From a virus (Duplodnaviria > Caudoviricetes): DNA of 58,539 nt. The stretch is from IMG/VR virus record IMGVR_UViG_3300031857_000203, positions 1-58,539 of that record. One strand, 5' to 3'. Shown here one piece after another: positions 1,560 to 56,801 of the stretch (the stretch's first letter is position 1; every line of letters starts with the position of its first letter). Below the pieces are notes generated by a model, which made no database searches, was not told the origin of the DNA, and saw only the letters and a list, made by a program, of their open reading frames with translations. The position numbers were made by a program, and so were the translations under genes.

Positions 1560-1836
1560 CCTGCAGCAAAGGGTCATCGCGGCCTGTGAAGAAAAAGCCT
1601 GCAGTGCAGCAGAACTGGTGGATGCTTTTGGTGTGAGCCGGTGGTACGTCTACCAACTTGCCAAGCGGGGATTCTTAAAGAACATCAGCAACGATCACTC
1701 CGCAGCGCAATATGTAGCGGTTGCTAATCCCAAAAAAGAAACAAAACACACCCCCAGAGTGCAACGCAAGTGGAAACCTCAAGCAGCACTACAACAAGCT
1801 CCCAGCATCTGGCATTACGCAGAGAGGCTCAAGTGA
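1552..1836 (+). CDS. Putative HTH DNA-binding protein (copy 1 only)
   Basis: SAAELVDAFGVSRWYVYQL HTH-like segment; clean indel relative to copy 2. Confidence 0.65.
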   Translation: MTDLQQRVIAACEEKACSAAELVDAFGVSRWYVYQLAKRGFLKNISNDHSAAQYVAVANPKKETKHTPRVQRKWKPQAALQQAPSIWHYAERLK

Positions 1837-3165: not shown

Positions 3166-4576
3166 TCTAGCTGAAGCATTCCAGCAGCCTGATGTACTGC
3201 AGGCGCTCAAGACACTGCCGCCTGAGAAGCGCCTAGCCTATCTCTGGCGGGCCAACTGGATCGAGAAGGCCCACAGGCACCAGATGCCGCCTCCAGGCGA
3301 CTGGTGGACGATCTGGCTGCTTCTGGCGGGACGCGGTGCAGGCAAGACACGCACAGCAGCAGAGCAGGTAGGTTGGTGGGCCTGGACAGAACCAGGGACA
3401 CGCTGGCTTGTCGGGGCTCCAACTAGTGCTGACGTCAAGGCTACCTGCTTTGAGGGCGACTCGGGATTATTGAACGTTATCCCCGCTCCACTAATTGCTG
3501 ACTACAACAAGCAGCACCATGAGCTGAAGCTGACGAACGGATCCCTGATCAAGGGCATCCCTGCCAGTGAGCCTGAGCGCTTTCGGGGTCCGCAGTTCCA
3601 CGGGGCATGGCTTGATGAGCTTGCAGCCTGGGAGTACCTGCAAGAAGCCTGGGACCAGATCCAGTTCTCTGTCCGCTTGGGAACCAGAACCCGCATCGTT
3701 GCCACCACCACACCTAGACCCAAAGACCTGATCGTGGAACTGGTGGGCCGTGAGGGTGACGATGTAGCCCTGACGACTGCCAGCACCTACGCCAACCTTG
3801 CGAACCTAGCCCCGTCATTTCAGAAGCAGATCCTGCAGTACGAGGGGACGAAGCTAGGCAGGCAGGAGATCCACGCTGAGATCATCGATCCTGAAGAGGG
3901 CGGGATCGTCCAGCGCAGCATGTTCAAGCTGTGGCCTGATGGCAAGGCCTTCCCTAAGTTCGAGTACATCGTCCAGTCCTACGACTGCGCCACCTCAGAG
4001 AAGACTCAGAATGATCCTACTGCCTGTACGACCTGGGGAGTCTTTAAGCCACTTGACGGGCCTATGTCAGCGATGCTTATTGATTGCTGGCAGGAGAGGA
4101 TGCAGTATCCGGACCTGCGACCGAAGGTTATCGACGAGTACGAGACGATCTTCGGTGAAGGCAAAGAGAAGAAGCGCGTGGATCTCATACTCATCGAGGA
4201 CAAGTCCGCAGGCATTTCTCTGATCCAAGACCTGCAGAGGGCGCACCTTCCGGTGAGGGGATACAACCCAGGAAGAGCCGATAAGCTGCAGCGCCTGAAC
4301 ATCGTCTCCAACATCATCGCAAGGGGCAGGGTGTGGATCCCTGAGTCTTCCAATAGGAAGGGCTACGTGAGGGACTGGGCGGAAGGCTTTGTCAGCCAGA
4401 TCTGCTCGTTCCCTGAGACGACACATGATGATTTTGTGGACAGTGCCTCGATGGCCCTGCGGTTCTTGCGGGACGCTGGCTGGCTCGAGGTTGATCCGCC
4501 TCCGCGGGATGACTGGGATGAAGAAGACTATGCAGACTCTGGCAGACAAAGAAGAACCAACCCCTACGCCGTCTGA
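3158..4576 (+). CDS. terL: Terminase large subunit
   Basis: Walker A GRGAGKT, Walker B AWLDE, nuclease motifs SYD, IEDKSAG, HDDFVD. Confidence 0.97.
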   Translation: MSDLAEAFQQPDVLQALKTLPPEKRLAYLWRANWIEKAHRHQMPPPGDWWTIWLLLAGRGAGKTRTAAEQVGWWAWTEPGTRWLVGAPTSADVKATCFEGDSGLLNVIPAPLIADYNKQHHELKLTNGSLIKGIPASEPERFRGPQFHGAWLDELAAWEYLQEAWDQIQFSVRLGTRTRIVATTTPRPKDLIVELVGREGDDVALTTASTYANLANLAPSFQKQILQYEGTKLGRQEIHAEIIDPEEGGIVQRSMFKLWPDGKAFPKFEYIVQSYDCATSEKTQNDPTACTTWGVFKPLDGPMSAMLIDCWQERMQYPDLRPKVIDEYETIFGEGKEKKRVDLILIEDKSAGISLIQDLQRAHLPVRGYNPGRADKLQRLNIVSNIIARGRVWIPESSNRKGYVRDWAEGFVSQICSFPETTHDDFVDSASMALRFLRDAGWLEVDPPPRDDWDEEDYADSGRQRRTNPYAV

Positions 4577-4706
4577 GCCTGTAGTCAGGACGCACTATCT
4601 AGGAGAAGGGCATGTGATGACCCCTTTGTGCTGGTGCTTACCTAGGCTGGACTTCAAAGACCCCGAGACGGGCAATGAAGTGTGGGTACATCACCAACCC
4701 TGTTGA
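4530..4706 (+). CDS. Small hypothetical protein (H..CWC.P..VWVHH)
   Basis: Cys/His cluster; start uncertain. Confidence 0.45.
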   Translation: MQTLADKEEPTPTPSEPVVRTHYLGEGHVMTPLCWCLPRLDFKDPETGNEVWVHHQPC

Positions 4707-50356: not shown

Positions 50357-50523
50357 ACGAAGTACCCCACAAGAGCAGCAATCGCGCCGACCACGGCGAA
50401 GATCACCAAAAATCCGATGGCAAACTTGGCGGTCTCCTCCAACATCATTTCCAGGCTGTAGAAGTCTGGCTCTTCTTGCCCAATTTCTGTTGCCGCTTCC
50501 GCCGCTTCTGGATGGTCGTTCAT
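50353..50523 (-). CDS. 56-aa membrane protein, absent from ORF track
   Basis: C-terminal FAIGFLVIFAVVGAIAALVGYFV; 4-nt overlaps on both sides. Confidence 0.65.
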   Translation of the reverse strand: MNDHPEAAEAATEIGQEEPDFYSLEMMLEETAKFAIGFLVIFAVVGAIAALVGYFV

Positions 50524-50714
50524 GCTCCCTCCCCCGCCAGAGTGGCCTTCAGACGTTCAATTCTGGTCTGGTGGTACGTCACCATTGCCTCTGCGTATTC
50601 GCGTGCGCTATGAGCCTCTAGAAGCGCTCGGCGGGCATGGTCATATTCCTGAGCGGCCAGCACTTCCGCAGAGGGCGGCTGGAACAACACCTTGATCTTC
50701 TCCCAGGCGTTCAT
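50520..50714 (-). CDS. Hypothetical protein
   Basis: GGAGG RBS; overlap chain. Confidence 0.65.
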   Translation of the reverse strand: MNAWEKIKVLFQPPSAEVLAAQEYDHARRALLEAHSAREYAEAMVTYHQTRIERLKATLAGEGA

Positions 50715-51022
50715 TTGTCCTCCTTCACAAATACGCCGTTGGGCATCATGGTGCCCTTGCGGTCTTTGATCTCGTTGTAGGCCGATTCAAGGCAGTCAAC
50801 AAGATTCAGGTCTTGCAGAGCGCAGTAGTTAATGAGGCAAACCATTACGTCACCAACACCATCTGCAATCTTTTCCAGATCCTTCTTGAGGGTTGCGTCC
50901 GCAAGTTCCCCGAGTTCGGATACGGCCTTGAGGAGTTGTGCCTCCGGGGTGCTGTTAGGGATGATGCCTCTTTGCTCGGCCCATCGAACAATCTCAAGCT
51001 CAAGATAGTTAAAACTGCTCAT
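50711..51022 (-). CDS. MazG-like nucleotide pyrophosphohydrolase
   Basis: QLLKAVSELGELA..DGVGDVMV..AYNEIKDRKG..GVFVKE. Confidence 0.85.
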   Translation of the reverse strand: MSSFNYLELEIVRWAEQRGIIPNSTPEAQLLKAVSELGELADATLKKDLEKIADGVGDVMVCLINYCALQDLNLVDCLESAYNEIKDRKGTMMPNGVFVKEDK

Positions 51023-51654
51023 GCGGTTCTCCTGTTTATCGTTTGTTCGTAAAAGTCAATCTGCGATGCGCGTTGTAGTTTTCCGTCCCGCAGCCTATGT
51101 CGTATGCCGCTAATGCCGACATTAAGAATAGCTGTGGCCTGTGTGGCGGTGACTATTCCATCATCGGTATACACATACACAGTTGTTCTTTTGTTGTTTT
51201 GTTGAGTTTTCTGATCGGCCCATCTGCAATTGGCTTTTGAGTAGCCAATGTTGTTGTTGATTCGATCAAGAGAGCATCCATCGGGACGTTCTCCCATGTC
51301 GCGCAAAAAGATTTCAAAGTCATGCCATTCCTGGCATACGCCTATGTTTCTTTCGGGGTAAGACTCATGCCCACCCTTGCCCAAAGACCGTTGCAGCATG
51401 CTGTGCCAGCTACGATATGTGGGCGTTCCTGCGTAGCCGTGCTTGGTTATCTTTTCAACTCTTTTGGCAACAGCGTTGCACCCGCAAGAGGTGCTTGCGC
51501 CGCTAGACAAGCTGCGGAACAAGACTTCTTTTGTTACTCCACAATCGCAGGCGCAGTTCCAGTAAAAGACGCCATATTTTTGTTTCTTGGCAAGCGAAAT
51601 TACTGTCCATTTACCAAAGCGAAGGCCTGAACGGTCAATGAGTTTAGCTGGCAT
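51019..51654 (-). CDS. Free-standing HNH-type homing endonuclease
   Basis: GLRFGKWTV..WNCACDCG..SCGC; DMGERPDGCSLDRINNNIGYSKANCRWA. Confidence 0.8.
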   Translation of the reverse strand: MPAKLIDRSGLRFGKWTVISLAKKQKYGVFYWNCACDCGVTKEVLFRSLSSGASTSCGCNAVAKRVEKITKHGYAGTPTYRSWHSMLQRSLGKGGHESYPERNIGVCQEWHDFEIFLRDMGERPDGCSLDRINNNIGYSKANCRWADQKTQQNNKRTTVYVYTDDGIVTATQATAILNVGISGIRHRLRDGKLQRASQIDFYEQTINRRTA

Positions 51655-51685
51655 GAGTTATTACCTCAATCAAAGCTGTAGTAAC

Positions 51686-52336
51686 TCAGAAAGGGATTTC
51701 CGATTCCATGTCAGCCAAGAACTCAGCGTTCTGCTGTTTCTGGTATTGCTCTGCAGCAGACCCCTTAGCCTTCCACTCAGGACTGGCTTCGATCTTGGCT
51801 TTCAAGTTGTTGGAGAAGGTGTCAAACAAAGCCATGTCAGGGTTGTCAAGGTCAAAGGTAGTCAGAGGGTTGACGCCTTCAGGAAGACCTGCCTTACGCA
51901 GCGCGGAGGGCACAGGGTTAACGTTGGAGACATTGGCGTAGACCTTTCCATCGTTGCCCTCGGCGTGGATGACAGTCAACATGCACCACGCTCCCAGAAC
52001 GTTCTTCAACTGAAAGCCCCGCAGTTCGTCTGCGGTGAAGTCACGGCCACGCCAAGCCTTCAGATCCGCCCTCAGACGAGACATCTCACCCAAGCTCATC
52101 GTGTAGTTCTTAGAGATGCTCATCGGCTCGTTGCGGTCGGTGACCAGAGCCTTGCCTTGTTCGTCTTCCCCGTGAACTTCCCACAAGATCATGATCTTGT
52201 AAGACTTCTTTTGCTGGCCTTGCCACTCGGTGGATTGAGTTCCCAAGTCAATGATGCGGTAGCACCGGGCAAGGTGCATGCCCGCAGGTACGGGTGTGAA
52301 CTTAGATTCGCTCGAGGCTTTTGCTGTGAGTCCCAT
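51686..52336 (-). CDS. Single-stranded DNA-binding/annealing protein (putative)
   Basis: PAGMHLARCYRIIDLGTQ; acidic C-terminal tail ending EIPF. Confidence 0.65.
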   Translation of the reverse strand: MGLTAKASSESKFTPVPAGMHLARCYRIIDLGTQSTEWQGQQKKSYKIMILWEVHGEDEQGKALVTDRNEPMSISKNYTMSLGEMSRLRADLKAWRGRDFTADELRGFQLKNVLGAWCMLTVIHAEGNDGKVYANVSNVNPVPSALRKAGLPEGVNPLTTFDLDNPDMALFDTFSNNLKAKIEASPEWKAKGSAAEQYQKQQNAEFLADMESEIPF

Positions 52337-52345
52337 GATGTTTCC

Positions 52346-52480
52346 TTAAAGTCCAAGTTGTCTACGGATCAGCTTCCAGTCTTGCGCTGTAGCTTCACCA
52401 GCTTCTGCCCGATCAAGTGCTTCGGACAGTCTCTTCAGGAGGTCTTGAATCATTTCGCTGATTTCATCGTCTAACGTCAT
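52346..52480 (-). CDS. 44-aa hypothetical protein, absent from ORF track
   Basis: GGAG RBS; first gene after the leftward promoter. Confidence 0.55.
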   Translation of the reverse strand: MTLDDEISEMIQDLLKRLSEALDRAEAGEATAQDWKLIRRQLGL

Positions 52481-52505
52481 TGCTTCGCTCCATCAAAGTG
52501 ACGAG

Positions 52506-52534
52506 ATCATAGTGCGTTTAACGAAACAATACAA
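52506..52534 (-). promoter_or_regulatory. Leftward sigma70-like promoter
   Basis: TTGTAT-N17-TATGAT on the minus strand. Confidence 0.65.
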
Positions 52535-52539
52535 TACCC

Positions 52540-52568
52540 TTTACAACACTCAGACACTTGTGTAAGAT
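52540..52568 (+). promoter_or_regulatory. Rightward sigma70-like promoter
   Basis: TTTACA-N17-TAAGAT. Confidence 0.65.
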
Positions 52569-52590
52569 CACATCAAACTTTGGAGGATCT

Positions 52591-52797
52591 ATGCACCTGC
52601 GCGAATGGTTGAAGTCTCAAGGCCGAGGGTCTCAGCAGAAGCTGGCCCAGAAGATCGGCGTGAGTGAGACTTGGATGTCTTTGCTGGTGAACAACAGAGT
52701 GCCTTGTTCCCCGGCTCTGGCTACTGCGATCCATCAAGTCACTGAAGGTGCGGTGGACCGGATGGAGTTGCGTCCTGACATCTTTGGTGCCCCATGA
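52591..52797 (+). CDS. Cro/YdaS-like HTH regulator
   Basis: QQKLAQKIGVSETWMS..VTEGAV..ELRPDIF; GGAGG RBS. Confidence 0.85.
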   Translation: MHLREWLKSQGRGSQQKLAQKIGVSETWMSLLVNNRVPCSPALATAIHQVTEGAVDRMELRPDIFGAP

Positions 52798-53141
52798 ACT
52801 GGTACAAGTTTGATTTCAAGGCATACCAGTTGGAGACCTACGGTCTGCCCGATGCCGAAGACCTTGCCTACCGCAGGCTGATGGACCGGTACTACGAGCG
52901 AGAAGGGCCGATCCCCAACAACACAGATGATCTTTGCAGCTCAATCGGGCTTGATTGGGACTGCATCATCCCTGTCCTGATCAAGTTCTTCTTGCTGAAC
53001 GAGCACGATCAGTGGGTCCATGTTGAGTGGCAGTTCGACATTGAGAAGCGACACGAACGGTTGCTCAAGGCGGCAGCCGCAGGCAAGATGGGCGGCAGGG
53101 GCAACAAAAAAGGCTTGCGCCAGCCAGCAGAAGTCAGTTAA
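52794..53141 (+). CDS. Short DUF1376/YdaU-family protein
   Basis: MNWYKF..EDLAYRRLMDRYYEREGPIP. Confidence 0.75.
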   Translation: MNWYKFDFKAYQLETYGLPDAEDLAYRRLMDRYYEREGPIPNNTDDLCSSIGLDWDCIIPVLIKFFLLNEHDQWVHVEWQFDIEKRHERLLKAAAAGKMGGRGNKKGLRQPAEVS

Positions 53142-53149
53142 AGTGTTGC

Positions 53150-53242
53150 GAAACCCGGCTAGGTCTGGCTGATCCCCTGACCGAAAAGCGTCACACCTCC
53201 GCCTGCCGTTGGTTTCCTTCAGAGGTGTCGTTAGAGGTGTTC
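53150..53242 (+). ncRNA. Putative cis-regulatory structured RNA (three-way junction, anti-SD loop)
   Basis: GAAACC/GGTTTC, CGGC/GCCG, GGTC/GACC and GCG/CGC stems; loop ACACCTC complementary to two GAGGTGT copies. Confidence 0.6.
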
Positions 53243-54013
53243 ATGCATTACTACCAGTTCCATGTCGGGGACTACCTGTCCTCAACCAGCCATCTTTCCA
53301 ACGAGGAAGACTTGGCATATCGACGTCTGCTCGATATGTACTACACCTCTGAGAAGCCAATACCGCTCGATACCCAATGGGTTTCCAGACGGTTGCGAGT
53401 GGCAACCGAGACGGTTGAATCCGTACTGCGAGACTTCTTCGTTCGCACGGAAGAGGGCTACTCAAAGGACCGCTGCCAGCAAGAGATCGAGAGATTTCGT
53501 CAGTTAGCTGAAAGAAACAAGCGAAACGGCAGTCTGGGAGGCAGGCCAAAGAACCCAATGGGTTCCCAATCGGATACCAGTGGCATCCCAGAAGAACCCA
53601 GTCGTAACCCTAACCATGAACCAATAACCAAGAACCAAGAACCAATAGATATAGAACCTAAAGGTTCTTTGTCGGGAAGTGCCTTCCCTCCCTGCCCGCA
53701 AAGAGAGATTCTTTGGCTTTGGAAGGAGAAGCTCCCTCATCTTGCCCAGCCCAGAATCTGGGAGGGCTCCAGGGCTGCTGCCTTGAGGCAGCGCTGGGTG
53801 CAGGCTTCTAAGCCTTCCGCCTTCAACAAAGATGGCTATGCCACGCAAGACGCTGGCTTGGAGTGGTGGGGTTCGTTCTTTGACTACATCGCCAAAGACA
53901 CGAAGTTGTCGAACGGCTTTGAGAGTCAAGGCCGTGTCTGGAAGCCAGACTTGGAGTGGGTGGTGAACGCCACGAATTTTCAAAAGATCATTGATGGGAA
54001 GTACGACCAATGA
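53243..54013 (+). CDS. DUF1376/YdaU-family replication initiator (putative)
   Basis: MHYYQFHVGDY..EEDLAYRRLLDMYY; GGRPK; C-terminal WKPDLEWVV..FQKIIDGKY. Confidence 0.8.
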   Translation: MHYYQFHVGDYLSSTSHLSNEEDLAYRRLLDMYYTSEKPIPLDTQWVSRRLRVATETVESVLRDFFVRTEEGYSKDRCQQEIERFRQLAERNKRNGSLGGRPKNPMGSQSDTSGIPEEPSRNPNHEPITKNQEPIDIEPKGSLSGSAFPPCPQREILWLWKEKLPHLAQPRIWEGSRAAALRQRWVQASKPSAFNKDGYATQDAGLEWWGSFFDYIAKDTKLSNGFESQGRVWKPDLEWVVNATNFQKIIDGKYDQ

Positions 54014-54294
54014 GCTACGTCAAGCGTGAAACTGAAGGCACCTATACCGCCTACACCTGCAAGTTCTGCAACAACCCTGCCACGGCTGAAGCTCTCTCTA
54101 CCTTGGGTGCGAGATGCTCAAGGTGCTACGAGGTCTACTGCAAAGACATCTGGCCCGCGATGAAGTTTCCTGCAGGGCTTATTCCGCAGACTCACCTTGC
54201 CTGGGCGCACAAGCTGAAGCACCGCCACGATTGCGGTGAGAAGCTGACCGGCATCCAGATCGAGAAGTTTAAGATCGCGTTGAGGTTGGAATGA
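54010..54294 (+). CDS. Hypothetical Zn-binding protein
   Basis: CKFC..CSRC; ATGA overlap. Confidence 0.7.
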   Translation: MSYVKRETEGTYTAYTCKFCNNPATAEALSTLGARCSRCYEVYCKDIWPAMKFPAGLIPQTHLAWAHKLKHRHDCGEKLTGIQIEKFKIALRLE

Positions 54295-54533
54295 ACTGCA
54301 TGGGTGGCTGGTGCCTGAAGAGGCAGAACTGCGTGTACTACTGGCAGGAGAGCGAGATGACCATGGAGAGGCTTTGTGAGCCAGACAACACCGACGCCTA
54401 CCAACGAGTCACAGTTAACTTTCCAGCATCAGTGCCTCGTAAGGTGGCTTATTCAGTACCGATTAAGGGACAGGCAGGCATCTCACGATTGGCTGGAGCG
54501 ATTCAAGAAGCTGCATCCGACATCTACGCTTGA
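54291..54533 (+). CDS. Hypothetical Cys-rich protein
   Basis: CMGGWC..RQNC..RLCE; ATGA overlap. Confidence 0.5.
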   Translation: MNCMGGWCLKRQNCVYYWQESEMTMERLCEPDNTDAYQRVTVNFPASVPRKVAYSVPIKGQAGISRLAGAIQEAASDIYA

Positions 54534-54597
54534 GCGTGACACGAAGAAGCAGTGGTCATTAGGCAACAAAGGAAGAAAAGGAGAGTGGTATGAGTGA
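54376..54597 (+). CDS. Hypothetical protein
   Basis: HQCLVRWLI..QWSLGNKG..GEW; stop overlaps the next start. Confidence 0.55.
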   Translation: MSQTTPTPTNESQLTFQHQCLVRWLIQYRLRDRQASHDWLERFKKLHPTSTLERDTKKQWSLGNKGRKGEWYE

Positions 54598-55432
54598 TCC
54601 ATTCAAGATTGATGGTCCCACTTGCATTTCATTTTCTGGAGGCAGGACCAGCGCCTACATGCTGTGGCGTGTGCTTCAGAGTAACGATGGTTTGCCGGAA
54701 GAGGCTAAGGTCTGTTTTGCGAATACGGGGAAAGAAGATGAGGCAACGCTGAGGTTTGTAGACCGTTGCAGCAAAGAGTGGGGCGTTCCGATTACCTGGG
54801 TGGAGTACGTTGATGCGGAAGAAACCAAAGATCGCTTCCGTGTTGTCACGTTTGAAACCGCCAGCAGGGATGGTGAACCCTTTGAAGCAATCATCCGCAA
54901 GCGCAACTACCTACCTAACCCTGTCAGCCGCTTCTGCACGGTGGAGATGAAGGTCCGCGCAATCCACCGTTATCTGAAAAGCATCGGTTGGACTGAGTGG
55001 GATTTAATGCTTGGCATCCGGGCAGACGAACAGCGCCGACTGGCGAAGATTGGCAATCAAGATTACGGCAAGCATGAAGAGAAAGTTGCGCCTCTTGGTA
55101 AGGTTGGCATAACCAAAGAAATGGTTGGCGAGTTTTGGGCAGCGCAGTCTTTTGATCTTGAACTACCAAACATTAGCGGTGTCACTTATCACGGCAACTG
55201 TGATCTCTGTTACTTAAAAGGTGCAGCGCAGATACAAAGCCTGATAGCGGAGAAGCCTGAGCGTGCGGTGTGGTGGATCAAGATGGAGGCCCTGGCCCTG
55301 GCCTCTGCGCCTTCTGGCGCTAAGTTTTGGACTGACCGCCCTTCTTACGCAGCGATGCTGAAGTTCGCCCAAGAGCAGAGAGATATGTTTGATCAGGACG
55401 AAGAAGCCATTGCGTGCTTCTGTGGAGAGTAA
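54590..55432 (+). CDS. PAPS-reductase-family (PP-loop) protein
   Basis: ISFSGGRTSAYM, FANTGKE, RFCT..MK, GIRADE..R, NCDLCY. Confidence 0.88.
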   Translation: MSDPFKIDGPTCISFSGGRTSAYMLWRVLQSNDGLPEEAKVCFANTGKEDEATLRFVDRCSKEWGVPITWVEYVDAEETKDRFRVVTFETASRDGEPFEAIIRKRNYLPNPVSRFCTVEMKVRAIHRYLKSIGWTEWDLMLGIRADEQRRLAKIGNQDYGKHEEKVAPLGKVGITKEMVGEFWAAQSFDLELPNISGVTYHGNCDLCYLKGAAQIQSLIAEKPERAVWWIKMEALALASAPSGAKFWTDRPSYAAMLKFAQEQRDMFDQDEEAIACFCGE

Positions 55433-55891
55433 ATGAGACTCTTCATCGGGCTAGACCCCGGAGCAGTCTCTGGTGCATGGGGAGTAGTGAACCATCACGG
55501 TGACTACGTTGCCTGCGGGCCAATACCTAACGAGGGTGGCCGAATCAAGGCAATCCAGTTGCGTGACCAGCTTGGACAAGTAATCGGAAGCAATGACGCG
55601 ATATTCGTGGTCGAGGACGTTCATTCCATGCCGAAGCAGGGGGTAGCCTCAACCTTCACCTTTGCGCGTGCTGTAGGGGCCATAGAAGCCGTTACAGAGC
55701 TATTCCGAGACCCGTGGTACATCGTCCGACCGCAAAGGTGGAAGGCAGACATGGGCGTGACAGCAGAAAAATCCACCAGTTTGGAACTTGCGAGGCAACT
55801 ATGGACGACAGCACCCCTCACCCGCAAAAAAGACCACGGCGTAGCAGAAGCACTGCTGCTGGCGGAGTGGCTCCGCAGACAAGAGTTGTGA
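55433..55891 (+). CDS. RuvC-like Holliday junction resolvase
   Basis: IGLDPG, VEDVHSMPKQGVASTFTF, PQRWK, KDHGVAEALL. Confidence 0.85.
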   Translation: MRLFIGLDPGAVSGAWGVVNHHGDYVACGPIPNEGGRIKAIQLRDQLGQVIGSNDAIFVVEDVHSMPKQGVASTFTFARAVGAIEAVTELFRDPWYIVRPQRWKADMGVTAEKSTSLELARQLWTTAPLTRKKDHGVAEALLLAEWLRRQEL

Positions 55892-56040
55892 GAGAACCGA
55901 CTTTGCTGGATGTTTTTGCGGCTTTCATCCAACACGCGGTGATCGTTAGCGGCCAGCAGCATGTAACGGCGCAGGATGTCTACGACGCTGCTGAAGGGAT
56001 GTTGAGGGAATCGGAGCGCAGACATGCCAACAGGAACTGA
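55888..56040 (+). CDS. Small hypothetical protein
   Basis: GTGA overlap; LLDVFAAF..YDAAEGMLRE. Confidence 0.6.
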   Translation: MREPTLLDVFAAFIQHAVIVSGQQHVTAQDVYDAAEGMLRESERRHANRN

Positions 56041-56323
56041 ACTGGCGGTGTGTCAGGACATCGAATACCGGCAGAAGATGGGCATCAACAAGTACGGAAC
56101 TACCGTAGCTGAGAACCCATTGGAGTTGCGGGAATGGCTGCAGAACGCCTATGAAGAGGCCCTTGATCTCAGCGTATACTTGAGGAGGTCAATGGAGGAG
56201 CTTGATAAGCATGGGGTACAAACTTGTCGATCTAACAGGAAAGACGTTCAGCAGGCTGACGGTGGTTCAGATGATGCCATCGATCAAGTACGGGCTGACA
56301 TCCAAAAGAAGATGGAAATGTAG
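56024..56323 (+). CDS. Allele of 8-202 with a replaced and extended C-terminus
   Basis: Identical up to WLQ, then NAYEEALDLSVYLRRSMEELD. Confidence 0.7.
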   Translation: MPTGTELAVCQDIEYRQKMGINKYGTTVAENPLELREWLQNAYEEALDLSVYLRRSMEELDKHGVQTCRSNRKDVQQADGGSDDAIDQVRADIQKKMEM

Positions 56324-56801
56324 ATGTGAATGCGGAAAAGAAACTGAGGTTGATACTGGTGGGTTAACTTCAGGCAAAACAAAATCATGTGGGTGCCTGC
56401 ATTCCGAAACTTCTGCAGAAAATGGCATAAAGTCTAGGCATTTAGTGGCGAAGACACAGGCCGCATTTAATTCAATAAAGTCTATATACAAATCAAATGC
56501 AAAAAAACGCAATCTTGTCTGGGGTTTAAGCGATGAATATGCGCTGAGTCTTTTGAATGGAAACTGTTATTTTTGTGGAGATCCCCCGTCAAATTTGTAT
56601 AAGACCACATATTACAATCAAAAATACAATGGTATTGATAGATTGAATAATGATATGGGGTATGCAGAAGAAAACACGGTTTCTTGTTGCAAAGTTTGTA
56701 ATCATGCAAAGCACACGATGGATAAGGACACGTTTCTGAATTGGGTGAAAAAGGTTAATGATCATCAGCGAACGATGGAGGAACTTGATGGAACCAGATG
56801 A
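56211..56801 (+). mobile_element. Free-standing HNH homing endonuclease gene (insertion)
   Basis: LTGKTFSRLTV..WKCRCECG..SCGC; CYFCG..GIDRLNN..NTVSCCKVCNHAK; AT-rich; absent from copy 1. Confidence 0.85.

Follow-up and report, generated by a model that had tools for sequence, protein, structure and literature searches.

What kind of element precedes a phage replication gene when one of its hairpin loops is the exact complement of two copies of GAGGTGT, the second of them lying on the Shine-Dalgarno sequence of the gene? The case arises in IMGVR_UViG_3300031857_000203 (Duplodnaviria; Caudoviricetes), a complete IMG/VR virus record of 58.5 kb (58,539 nucleotides, nt), which is the window analysed here and in whose numbering all positions are given. 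On sequence evidence, the element belongs to the int-alpA RNA family as a variant with a long P2, P2 being the second of the three stems, P1 to P3, of a three-way junction. The predicted pairing of its P3 loop with two downstream sites, in which loop and sites vary together from locus to locus, is a property of the family.

An initial annotation of this DNA had placed a promoter candidate, the three stems, a linker, the loop, the two GAGGTGT copies and the ATG start codon in front of the gene. All of them are found where they had been placed, and the parts of the locus, with the sources that support them, are as follows.

53115-53120, + strand: -35-like hexamer TTGCGC, read from the sequence, 18 nt before the -10-like hexamer.
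53139-53144, + strand: -10-like hexamer TAAAGT, sharing bases with the TAA stop of the upstream short DUF1376 open reading frame.
53150-53159, + strand: 5′ strand of P1 (GAAACCCGGC), from the Rfam alignment, pair counts on 42 sequences and RNAalifold (inner 4 pairs); probable 5′ end of the transcript.
53160-53161, + strand: junction UA within the invariant CUAG, upper-case in the Rfam consensus; its invariance in the alignment is set by the search pattern.
53162-53182, + strand: P2 hairpin, 53162-53168 with 53176-53182, 6 pairs and a U.U mismatch.
53169-53175, + strand: P2 loop CUGAUCC, 7 nt, containing the palindrome GAUC.
53183-53187, + strand: junction linker GAAAA within the conserved CGAAAAGCG, upper-case in the Rfam consensus.
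53188-53190 with 53200-53202, + strand: P3 (GCG/CGC), 3 pairs and a 9-nt loop, UCACACCUC; Rfam alignment and direct reading.
53193-53199, + strand: pairing segment ACACCUC of the P3 loop (L3), the 3′ part of the loop, abutting the 3′ strand of P3; exact complement of both sites.
53203-53204, + strand: junction CU within the conserved CGCCUG; Rfam alignment.
53205-53216, + strand: 3′ strand of P1 (GCCG-UU-GGUUUC) with a UU bulge at 53209-53210; Rfam alignment and pair counts.
53217-53221, + strand: short pyrimidine-rich linker CUUCA; in the family, a T-rich, G-poor tract 8-15 nt after CGCCTG.
53222-53228, + strand: site 1, GAGGUGU, partner of L3 in the proposed pseudoknot; calculated duplex energy -10.5 kcal/mol.
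53234-53240, + strand: site 2, GAGGUGU, on the Shine-Dalgarno sequence of the DUF1376 gene, at a period of 12 nt from site 1; calculated duplex energy -10.5 kcal/mol.
53243-54013, + strand: downstream gene, start ATG at 53243, 256 amino acids; DUF1376 domain at the N-terminus, O-like replication-initiation part at the C-terminus.
52794-53141, + strand: upstream open reading frame of 115 amino acids with DUF1376 only (Pfam PF07120, E 1.3e-13), whose 3′ end holds the candidate promoter.

We identified the element with Rfam. At a permissive threshold, a scan of 52000-54500 gave one meaningful match, int-alpA RNA (RF02996) at 53152-53225, with 33.3 bits and E 1.8e-4 (E 1e-6 when computed over the whole record). 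The alignment spans model positions 1-71 of 71 and covers the whole three-way junction. The element shares with the consensus the same junction and all of the conserved letters, namely CUAG (53159-53162), CGAAAAGCG (53182-53190) and CGCCUG (53200-53205). The consensus itself has a loop reading ...CCuU... and a tail after P1 reading ...AgGG, which are complementary in the same way as the ACACCUC loop and GAGGUGU of the window. The initial annotation had held the scaffold to be novel; it turns out to be a catalogued motif, matched below the cut-off. Indeed, at the Rfam gathering level the whole window gives 0 matches, the cut-off of RF02996 being 35.8 bits.

To define the family more widely, IMG/VR was scanned with a pattern of the conserved letters and free spacers. 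This gave at least 119 stretches, and the 118 instances with enough flanking sequence reduced to 109 non-identical loci (numbered here with the prefix L). Twelve of 16 pattern loci reached the gathering cut-off, at 39-59.8 bits, and these 12 show the same loop-to-two-sites layout. The remaining four (L015, L016, L025 and L029) are all window-like, with a P2 of about 20 nt. Since the sub-threshold loci are all of its type, we place the window in a long-P2 subgroup, which the Rfam cut-off misses. It departs from the consensus in its P2 of 21 nt, about twice the short form, and in its P3 of 3 pairs rather than 5. The setting also differs from the one that the family name implies, as the element is flanked on either side by a DUF1376 gene, in a phage early operon, and not by int and alpA. 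An integrase is upstream in only 3 of 87 pattern loci, and AlpA is absent from the 25 downstream families listed.

The int-alpA motif reportedly comes from the motif survey of Weinberg et al. 2017. Rfam gives the family the type label 'Gene; sRNA'. No functional study of int-alpA was found in a literature search, and blastn against deposited phages returned short pieces only, covering at most 10% of the query. The main text of the survey, in the portions of PMC5737381 searched, has no mention of int-alpA; the supplements, which may draw the pseudoknot, lay outside that search. We found no description, within the literature searched, of the long-P2 subgroup, of its position ahead of replication genes or of a two-site design that covaries.

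The central result is the complementarity between the loop and the tail. As a MAFFT alignment that included the tail lost the register of the sites, we used an alignment-free test, in which exact complements of the P3 loop region were sought within 70 nt downstream and compared with 200 permutations in which loops were swapped between loci. At a length of at least 5 nt, 103 of the 109 loci had one site or more and 60 had two or more, whereas swapped loops gave 34% and 6%. With a minimum of 6 nt, the counts were 74 and 23 of 109, against 9% and 0.7%. A same-sense control at 5 nt gave 11 loci with at least one site and 1 with at least two. Upstream of the RNA (105 nt, in the manner of P4 seqA), complements of the loop occurred in 32 of 109 loci at 5 nt and in 5 of 109 at 6 nt, showing no enrichment over the downstream swapped-loop controls. 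The loops themselves vary greatly, with 74 distinct loops among the 109 loci, and the sites follow them, as in the pairs GACCCC/GGGGTC, TCGTCA/TGACGA and TGCCTTG/CAAGGCA.

The same was seen in bacterial genomes, where 120 pattern hits gave 119 instances; 48 passed a filter on P1 and P2, 54 served as negatives and 17 intermediates were left out. Stutzerimonas stutzeri, Pseudomonas peli and a Rhizobium are among the bacteria with hits. Among the 48 structure-passing instances, 45 had at least one site and 34 at least two (swapped loops, 43% and 13%), compared with 19 and 7 of the 54 instances without P1.

The two sites have distinct positions. Across all 109 phage loci, a distal site (at least 5 nt) was present in 84, a site ending 0-14 nt before the start codon in 65, and both in 49, against 12%, 15% and 3% with swapped loops. 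A loop resembling an anti-Shine-Dalgarno sequence might find a start-proximal partner by default. The 44 loops without an anti-Shine-Dalgarno-like 4-mer, however, retained the enrichment (distal 34, start-proximal 26, both 20; swapped loops 12%, 11% and 5%), so the second site is not merely a by-product of such loops. The duplication can also be seen without reference to the loop. A direct repeat of at least 6 nt lies in the tail of 40 of 108 loci (shuffled mean 8.8), and 55 of the 64 tail repeats that reach 5 nt have complementarity to the loop over 4 nt or more. The repeat period is mostly 12-14 nt, the 12 nt of the window being typical, and 0-12 nt (mode 6-7) separate the end of the second copy from the start codon, which agrees with the earlier claim that the second GAGGTGT of the window sits where a Shine-Dalgarno sequence is expected. 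Covariation between loop and Shine-Dalgarno sequence was the test that the initial annotation had proposed for itself, and it holds in the phage loci, in bacterial genomes and in loops unlike an anti-Shine-Dalgarno sequence. The part of the loop that pairs is its 3′ end, next to the 3′ strand of P3, a placement that implies the geometry of an H-type pseudoknot.

The junction was examined on an alignment of 42 window-like sequences. RNAalifold predicted the inner part of P1, P2 and P3 unaided. The covariation score was 0.311 against 0.123 in shuffles, and 0 of 500 shuffles reached it. In pair counts on these sequences 89.4% of cells were paired, the proportion being far lower with partners slid. 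Five of the seven P2 pairs had changes on both sides, and P2 stems contained 19 GU/UG and 4 AC/CA combinations, an excess that points to an RNA on this strand. As P3 is invariant under the search pattern, the covariation signal comes from P1 and P2.

We then asked where the RNA might begin. In the window, TAAAGT ends 14 nt before the C of CTAG, and 14 nt is the mode in the family (32 of 109 loci). Of the 109 loci, 78 have a TANNNT that ends 7-17 nt before CTAG; with the search window moved upstream by 30-70 nt, 6-14 loci did. The -35 signal is weaker: 62 of the 78 have at least 3 of 6 matches to the -35 hexamer, a count that has no control. The closest relative of the window, L002 (85% protein identity over the best-matching segment), has a leader that is nearly identical from the -10 hexamer to the ATG, except for P2 and the spacer between the sites, and the flanking coding DNA diverges more. 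The TTGC of the -35-like hexamer is kept in L002 amid differing flanking coding sequence. Because a -10-like hexamer is conserved just upstream of P1, the RNA seems to begin the transcript, with P1 near its 5′ end. The promoter guessed in the initial annotation thus has the modal position of the family -10, although a consensus scan does not call it. A terminator scan called none at the element.

We lean towards reading the element as a promoter-proximal 5′ leader on the mRNA of a DUF1376/O-like initiator, one that controls translation in cis by exchange of pseudoknot partners. Transcription would start at about 53150, P1 forming the 5′ end of the transcript, and the RNA would fold into the three-way junction, whose conserved core (CUAG, CGAAAAGCG and CGCCUG) would present the P3 loop. 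If the 3′ part of the loop paired with site 1, an H-type pseudoknot stacked on P3 would form and the Shine-Dalgarno sequence would stay free, with translation on. If the loop paired with site 2 instead, the Shine-Dalgarno sequence would be masked and translation would be off, the current partner of the loop thus setting the translational output. Since the two duplexes of the window are the same, each calculated at -10.5 kcal/mol, even a slight preference could switch the leader from one state to the other. Transcription from the candidate promoter, both RNA pairings, the translational effect of their exchange and what tips the balance are steps that we infer. The initial annotation had cast the two sites as a decoy and the true ribosome-binding site of a switch, which we likewise infer from the letters alone; its interpretation as a whole is partly supported.

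Several results weigh against this reading. Single-sequence folding does not favour the junction, the support for which is therefore comparative: the 119-nt leader has a z of 0.15, and in its minimum-energy fold the loop pairs with site 2 and both P1 and P3 are broken. The 71-nt core has a z of -1.62, and its minimum-energy fold retains P1 alone, with a different interior. The loci were gathered with one exact pattern, which fixes P3 and the junction letters by construction, and some subfamilies are over-represented. Only 60 of the 109 loci have two exact sites of at least 5 nt; site 2 is weaker or absent in many members, and many of the window-like ones have a site 2 that falls short of site 1 in length. 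In the loop-site duplexes, G.U and A.C combinations are equally frequent (7 and 7). In L030, site 1 is followed by a terminator-like GC hairpin and a T run before the next gene, with no site 2 at the Shine-Dalgarno sequence of that gene, so the core unit may be the junction and site 1 only. The window promoter matches the consensus at 7 of 12 positions, short of a call, and there are 0 RNA runs among the 22 sequencing runs listed for 50500-56500. As a separate observation, L030 would be a discrete small RNA consisting of the junction and site 1.

Two further features of the family bear on its possible mode of action. Of 70 distinct P2 sequences, 41 have a palindrome of at least 6 nt, where 500 shuffles of the loops gave a mean of 5.0 and a maximum of 12; among the P3 loop regions, 2 of 74 have one. 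The palindromes fall into 16 types, TAGCTA, TCATGA, TAATTA, TGATCA and GATC among them, which differ from each other by symmetrically placed double changes. The P2 loop of the window has a 4-nt palindrome only, GAUC, and a second copy of the P2 palindrome was found nearby in 1 of 45 cases. To judge from their sequences, P2 palindromes may mediate kissing-loop dimerisation. The HIV-1 DIS is a kissing-loop dimerisation site, and members of the long-P2 class with 8-10-nt loops similarly have a 6-nt palindrome after one to three purines, although dimerisation of int-alpA RNAs is conjectural and the palindrome of the window has 4 nt. The P2 of the window (53162-53182) and that of L002 (3357-3379) have different stems and different palindromes, swapped wholesale. 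The second feature concerns site 2. In 39 of 59 short-P2 loci (for example L023, L037, L087 and L012), a small hairpin directly precedes the start codon and holds site 2 and the Shine-Dalgarno sequence in its loop, compared with 6 of 26 loci in the long-P2 class and 45 of 85 overall (shuffled mean 22).

A rival explanation, which appears doubtful to us, is that the RNA is a self-targeting antisense RNA that acts in trans, as P4 CI and the C4 RNAs of phages P1 and P7 do, and exerts a dosage control or a control akin to immunity. A junction of about 70 nt would be freed by termination in the U-rich tract after stem P1, or by processing. Without site 1, its loop would be free to pair with either site on full-length transcripts, whether from the same phage or from a related incoming one, and so to block translation of the initiator, with specificity coming from the variable loop and sites and perhaps from the palindromic P2 loop. 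The Rfam type of int-alpA, a gene for a small RNA, fits this explanation, as does the T-rich, G-poor tract after P1 (59 of 109 loci have 5 or more T in 7 nt there, against 8 of 109 in a control stretch). So do the high diversity of loops and sites, the presence in L038 and L253 of two copies each with differing loop/site pairs, and the placement of site 2 in a hairpin loop in the short-P2 class, as antisense targets often are. The P2 palindromes would permit two copies to kiss, and P4 CI offers a precedent, being a processed leader RNA that pairs with two sites of its own transcript (as given in a section of PMC4825925). On the other side, the distance of site 1 after P1 is tightly constrained, which suits an intramolecular fold and would not be needed by a trans target. 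Scaffold and sites are linked in 103 of 109 loci (target-only or scaffold-only copies were not sought), the window has no further GAGGTGT on the + strand, the terminator scan is negative, the tract of the window, CUUCA, is short, and the listed sequencing runs include no RNA run. A bolder extension, which we consider unlikely, is that int-alpA RNAs are a new and widespread class of RNA devices by which temperate phages and satellites recognise themselves or confer immunity. Either freed from the leader or working from a sister transcript, the junction would find further copies through the kissing palindrome of P2, and its P3 loop would shut off translation of their initiator or endonuclease. 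Two 'address codes', the hypervariable palindrome of P2 and the loop/site pair, would then define orthogonal incompatibility or immunity groups. Such devices would resemble P4 CI or phage P1 C4 in function, with an unrelated fold and a translational target.

Other explanations keep the element in cis or move it to the DNA. The invariant junction could form a pocket whose occupant, a small molecule or a protein, stabilises the junction and the site-1 pseudoknot and so tips the near-isoenergetic choice, and the equal duplex energies calculated for the window suit such a sensor. An invariant junction with variable helices is also reminiscent of known aptamers; the invariance in our loci is, however, set by the search pattern, leaving the Rfam consensus as its support. 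The downstream genes (replication initiators, HNH endonucleases, regulators) suggest no metabolite, no partner protein has been identified, and we regard this sensor version as improbable. We give similarly little credence to a structural 5′ cap, in which the junction and the site-1 pseudoknot would serve mRNA stabilisation or processing and the copy at the ribosome-binding site would be non-regulatory. Site 1 is indeed the more constant and usually the longer of the two, the Rfam model ends at site 1, and L030 has its terminator-like hairpin after site 1. Start-proximal complements, however, are 4-6 times commoner than with swapped loops, including loops unlike an anti-Shine-Dalgarno sequence, and the two copies change jointly between relatives (for example, a GGGGTC pair against a GGGTCT pair). 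Finally, a phage protein could bind the inverted copy and the two direct copies in the DNA, where they would form an operator or an iteron array ahead of the initiator gene. A 7-mer present three times in 48 bp beside a replication gene, and a regular spacing of 12-14 bp between sites, would be expected of such an array. This explanation is nevertheless very improbable, as the copies lie in a conserved RNA-type fold with strand-specific G.U pairs and a covariance-model match, the inverted copy is always in a hairpin loop adjoining the 3′ strand of P3, and the same layout is found before unrelated genes.

The gene that follows the leader is a replication gene, as had been supposed. Its product matches Pfam PF07120 (DUF1376) with E 1.9e-23 and, in PHROGs, 'primosomal protein' and then 'replication initiation protein' and 'O-like' over residues 79-255. 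A YdaS/Cro-like helix-turn-helix gene precedes the upstream open reading frame 52794-53141. The two DUF1376 genes stand in tandem, the domain alone (52794-53141) being followed by its fusion to the O-like C-terminus (53243-54013), and L002 has the same pair. GAGGTGT is not common in the window, with 5 copies on both strands against 8.6 expected, and 3 of the 5 lie within 48 nt at the leader, two direct and one inverted. ACACCTC, in the loop sense, recurs at 53343-53349 (+), 100 nt into the DUF1376 coding region, and is the sole other copy nearby. A GTG at 53237-53239, inside site 2, is in frame with the ATG at 53243 and 9-11 nt past site 1; site 1 could therefore be the Shine-Dalgarno sequence for a protein two residues longer.

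In the family, the downstream gene is of the DUF1376 type in 32 of 108 loci, and a PHROG termed 'primosomal' or 'replication initiation' lies downstream in about 36 of 108. HNH or other homing-type endonuclease genes follow about 9 of 108 motif copies, which suggests that the promoter-leader unit moves with mobile genes. Other downstream genes are scattered (Rha, Mom, Dam, portal, terminase). Upstream, among the 87 loci, we found a YdaS or P22-Cro-type helix-turn-helix gene in 19 and DUF1376 in 3, beside the three integrases. These counts make the common setting a cro-like gene, then the leader, then a replication initiator. Some members are arranged differently. L038 has two divergent int-alpA copies, at 1660-1727(-) and 3843-3914(+), and L253 has two in tandem, 340 nt apart (1501-1568 and 1842-1909), each copy with its own loop and matching sites. 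In a few phages a tRNA gene ends about 20 nt before the motif (L013, 2364-2514; L253, about 1470-1500), and aragorn found a tRNA directly upstream in 1 of 109 loci. The phage contig L012 has, in addition to its int-alpA copy, a GP20-b RNA (RF03003, 50.6 bits) at 4621-4676.

The covariation of the loop with two sites gives int-alpA, which is found in phages, prophages and satellites, a concrete mechanism that mutations can test, and ties it to the control of replication initiators. In addition, the Rfam cut-off misses a whole long-P2 subgroup before DUF1376 replication genes. If the trans explanation were true, int-alpA would be a second family of RNA immunity factors, structurally unrelated to the first.

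Two known systems resemble the proposed leader. C4 and CI RNAs are cut out by RNase P, whereas here the candidate promoter abuts stem P1. In both cases a three-way junction bears the antisense sequence in its second hairpin loop, and in both the RNA is encoded in a leader and has two complementary sites on its own transcript. C4-type RNAs control phage replication or anti-repressor genes, and the leader described here precedes a replication gene. The layout of the junction differs, however, and there is no sequence or model similarity. The C4 model (RF01695, clan CL00128) scored 74.9 bits on the phage P4 positive control and gave no match at E up to 10 in 52000-54500. The analogy with C4 drawn in the initial annotation thus stands as far as the loop has two complementary sites in its own transcript, and fails for the model. 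P4 CI is described, in a section of PMC4825925, as a processed RNA in the leader of the operon that it controls, complementary to two sites on the same transcript. The P4 targets flank the RNA and act via transcription termination, whereas both sites lie downstream here and one is a Shine-Dalgarno sequence.

In IncB and IncI-alpha plasmids, the repZ pseudoknot activates translation; it depends on a leader peptide being translated, and a distinct antisense RNA blocks it. The name PK-repZ appears in a table of PMC12370729. Of the hallmarks that can be checked, no leader open reading frame is evident in 53150-53243, there is no Rfam match to IncB/IncI-type families in 52000-54500, and an antisense gene was not looked for. 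What remains of this second analogy of the initial annotation is that the loop pairs, in prediction, at the Shine-Dalgarno sequence of the initiator. In repZ as in the window, a hairpin loop in the leader of an initiator gene is complementary to a sequence at or next to the Shine-Dalgarno sequence; in the window, the loop has two equivalent partners.

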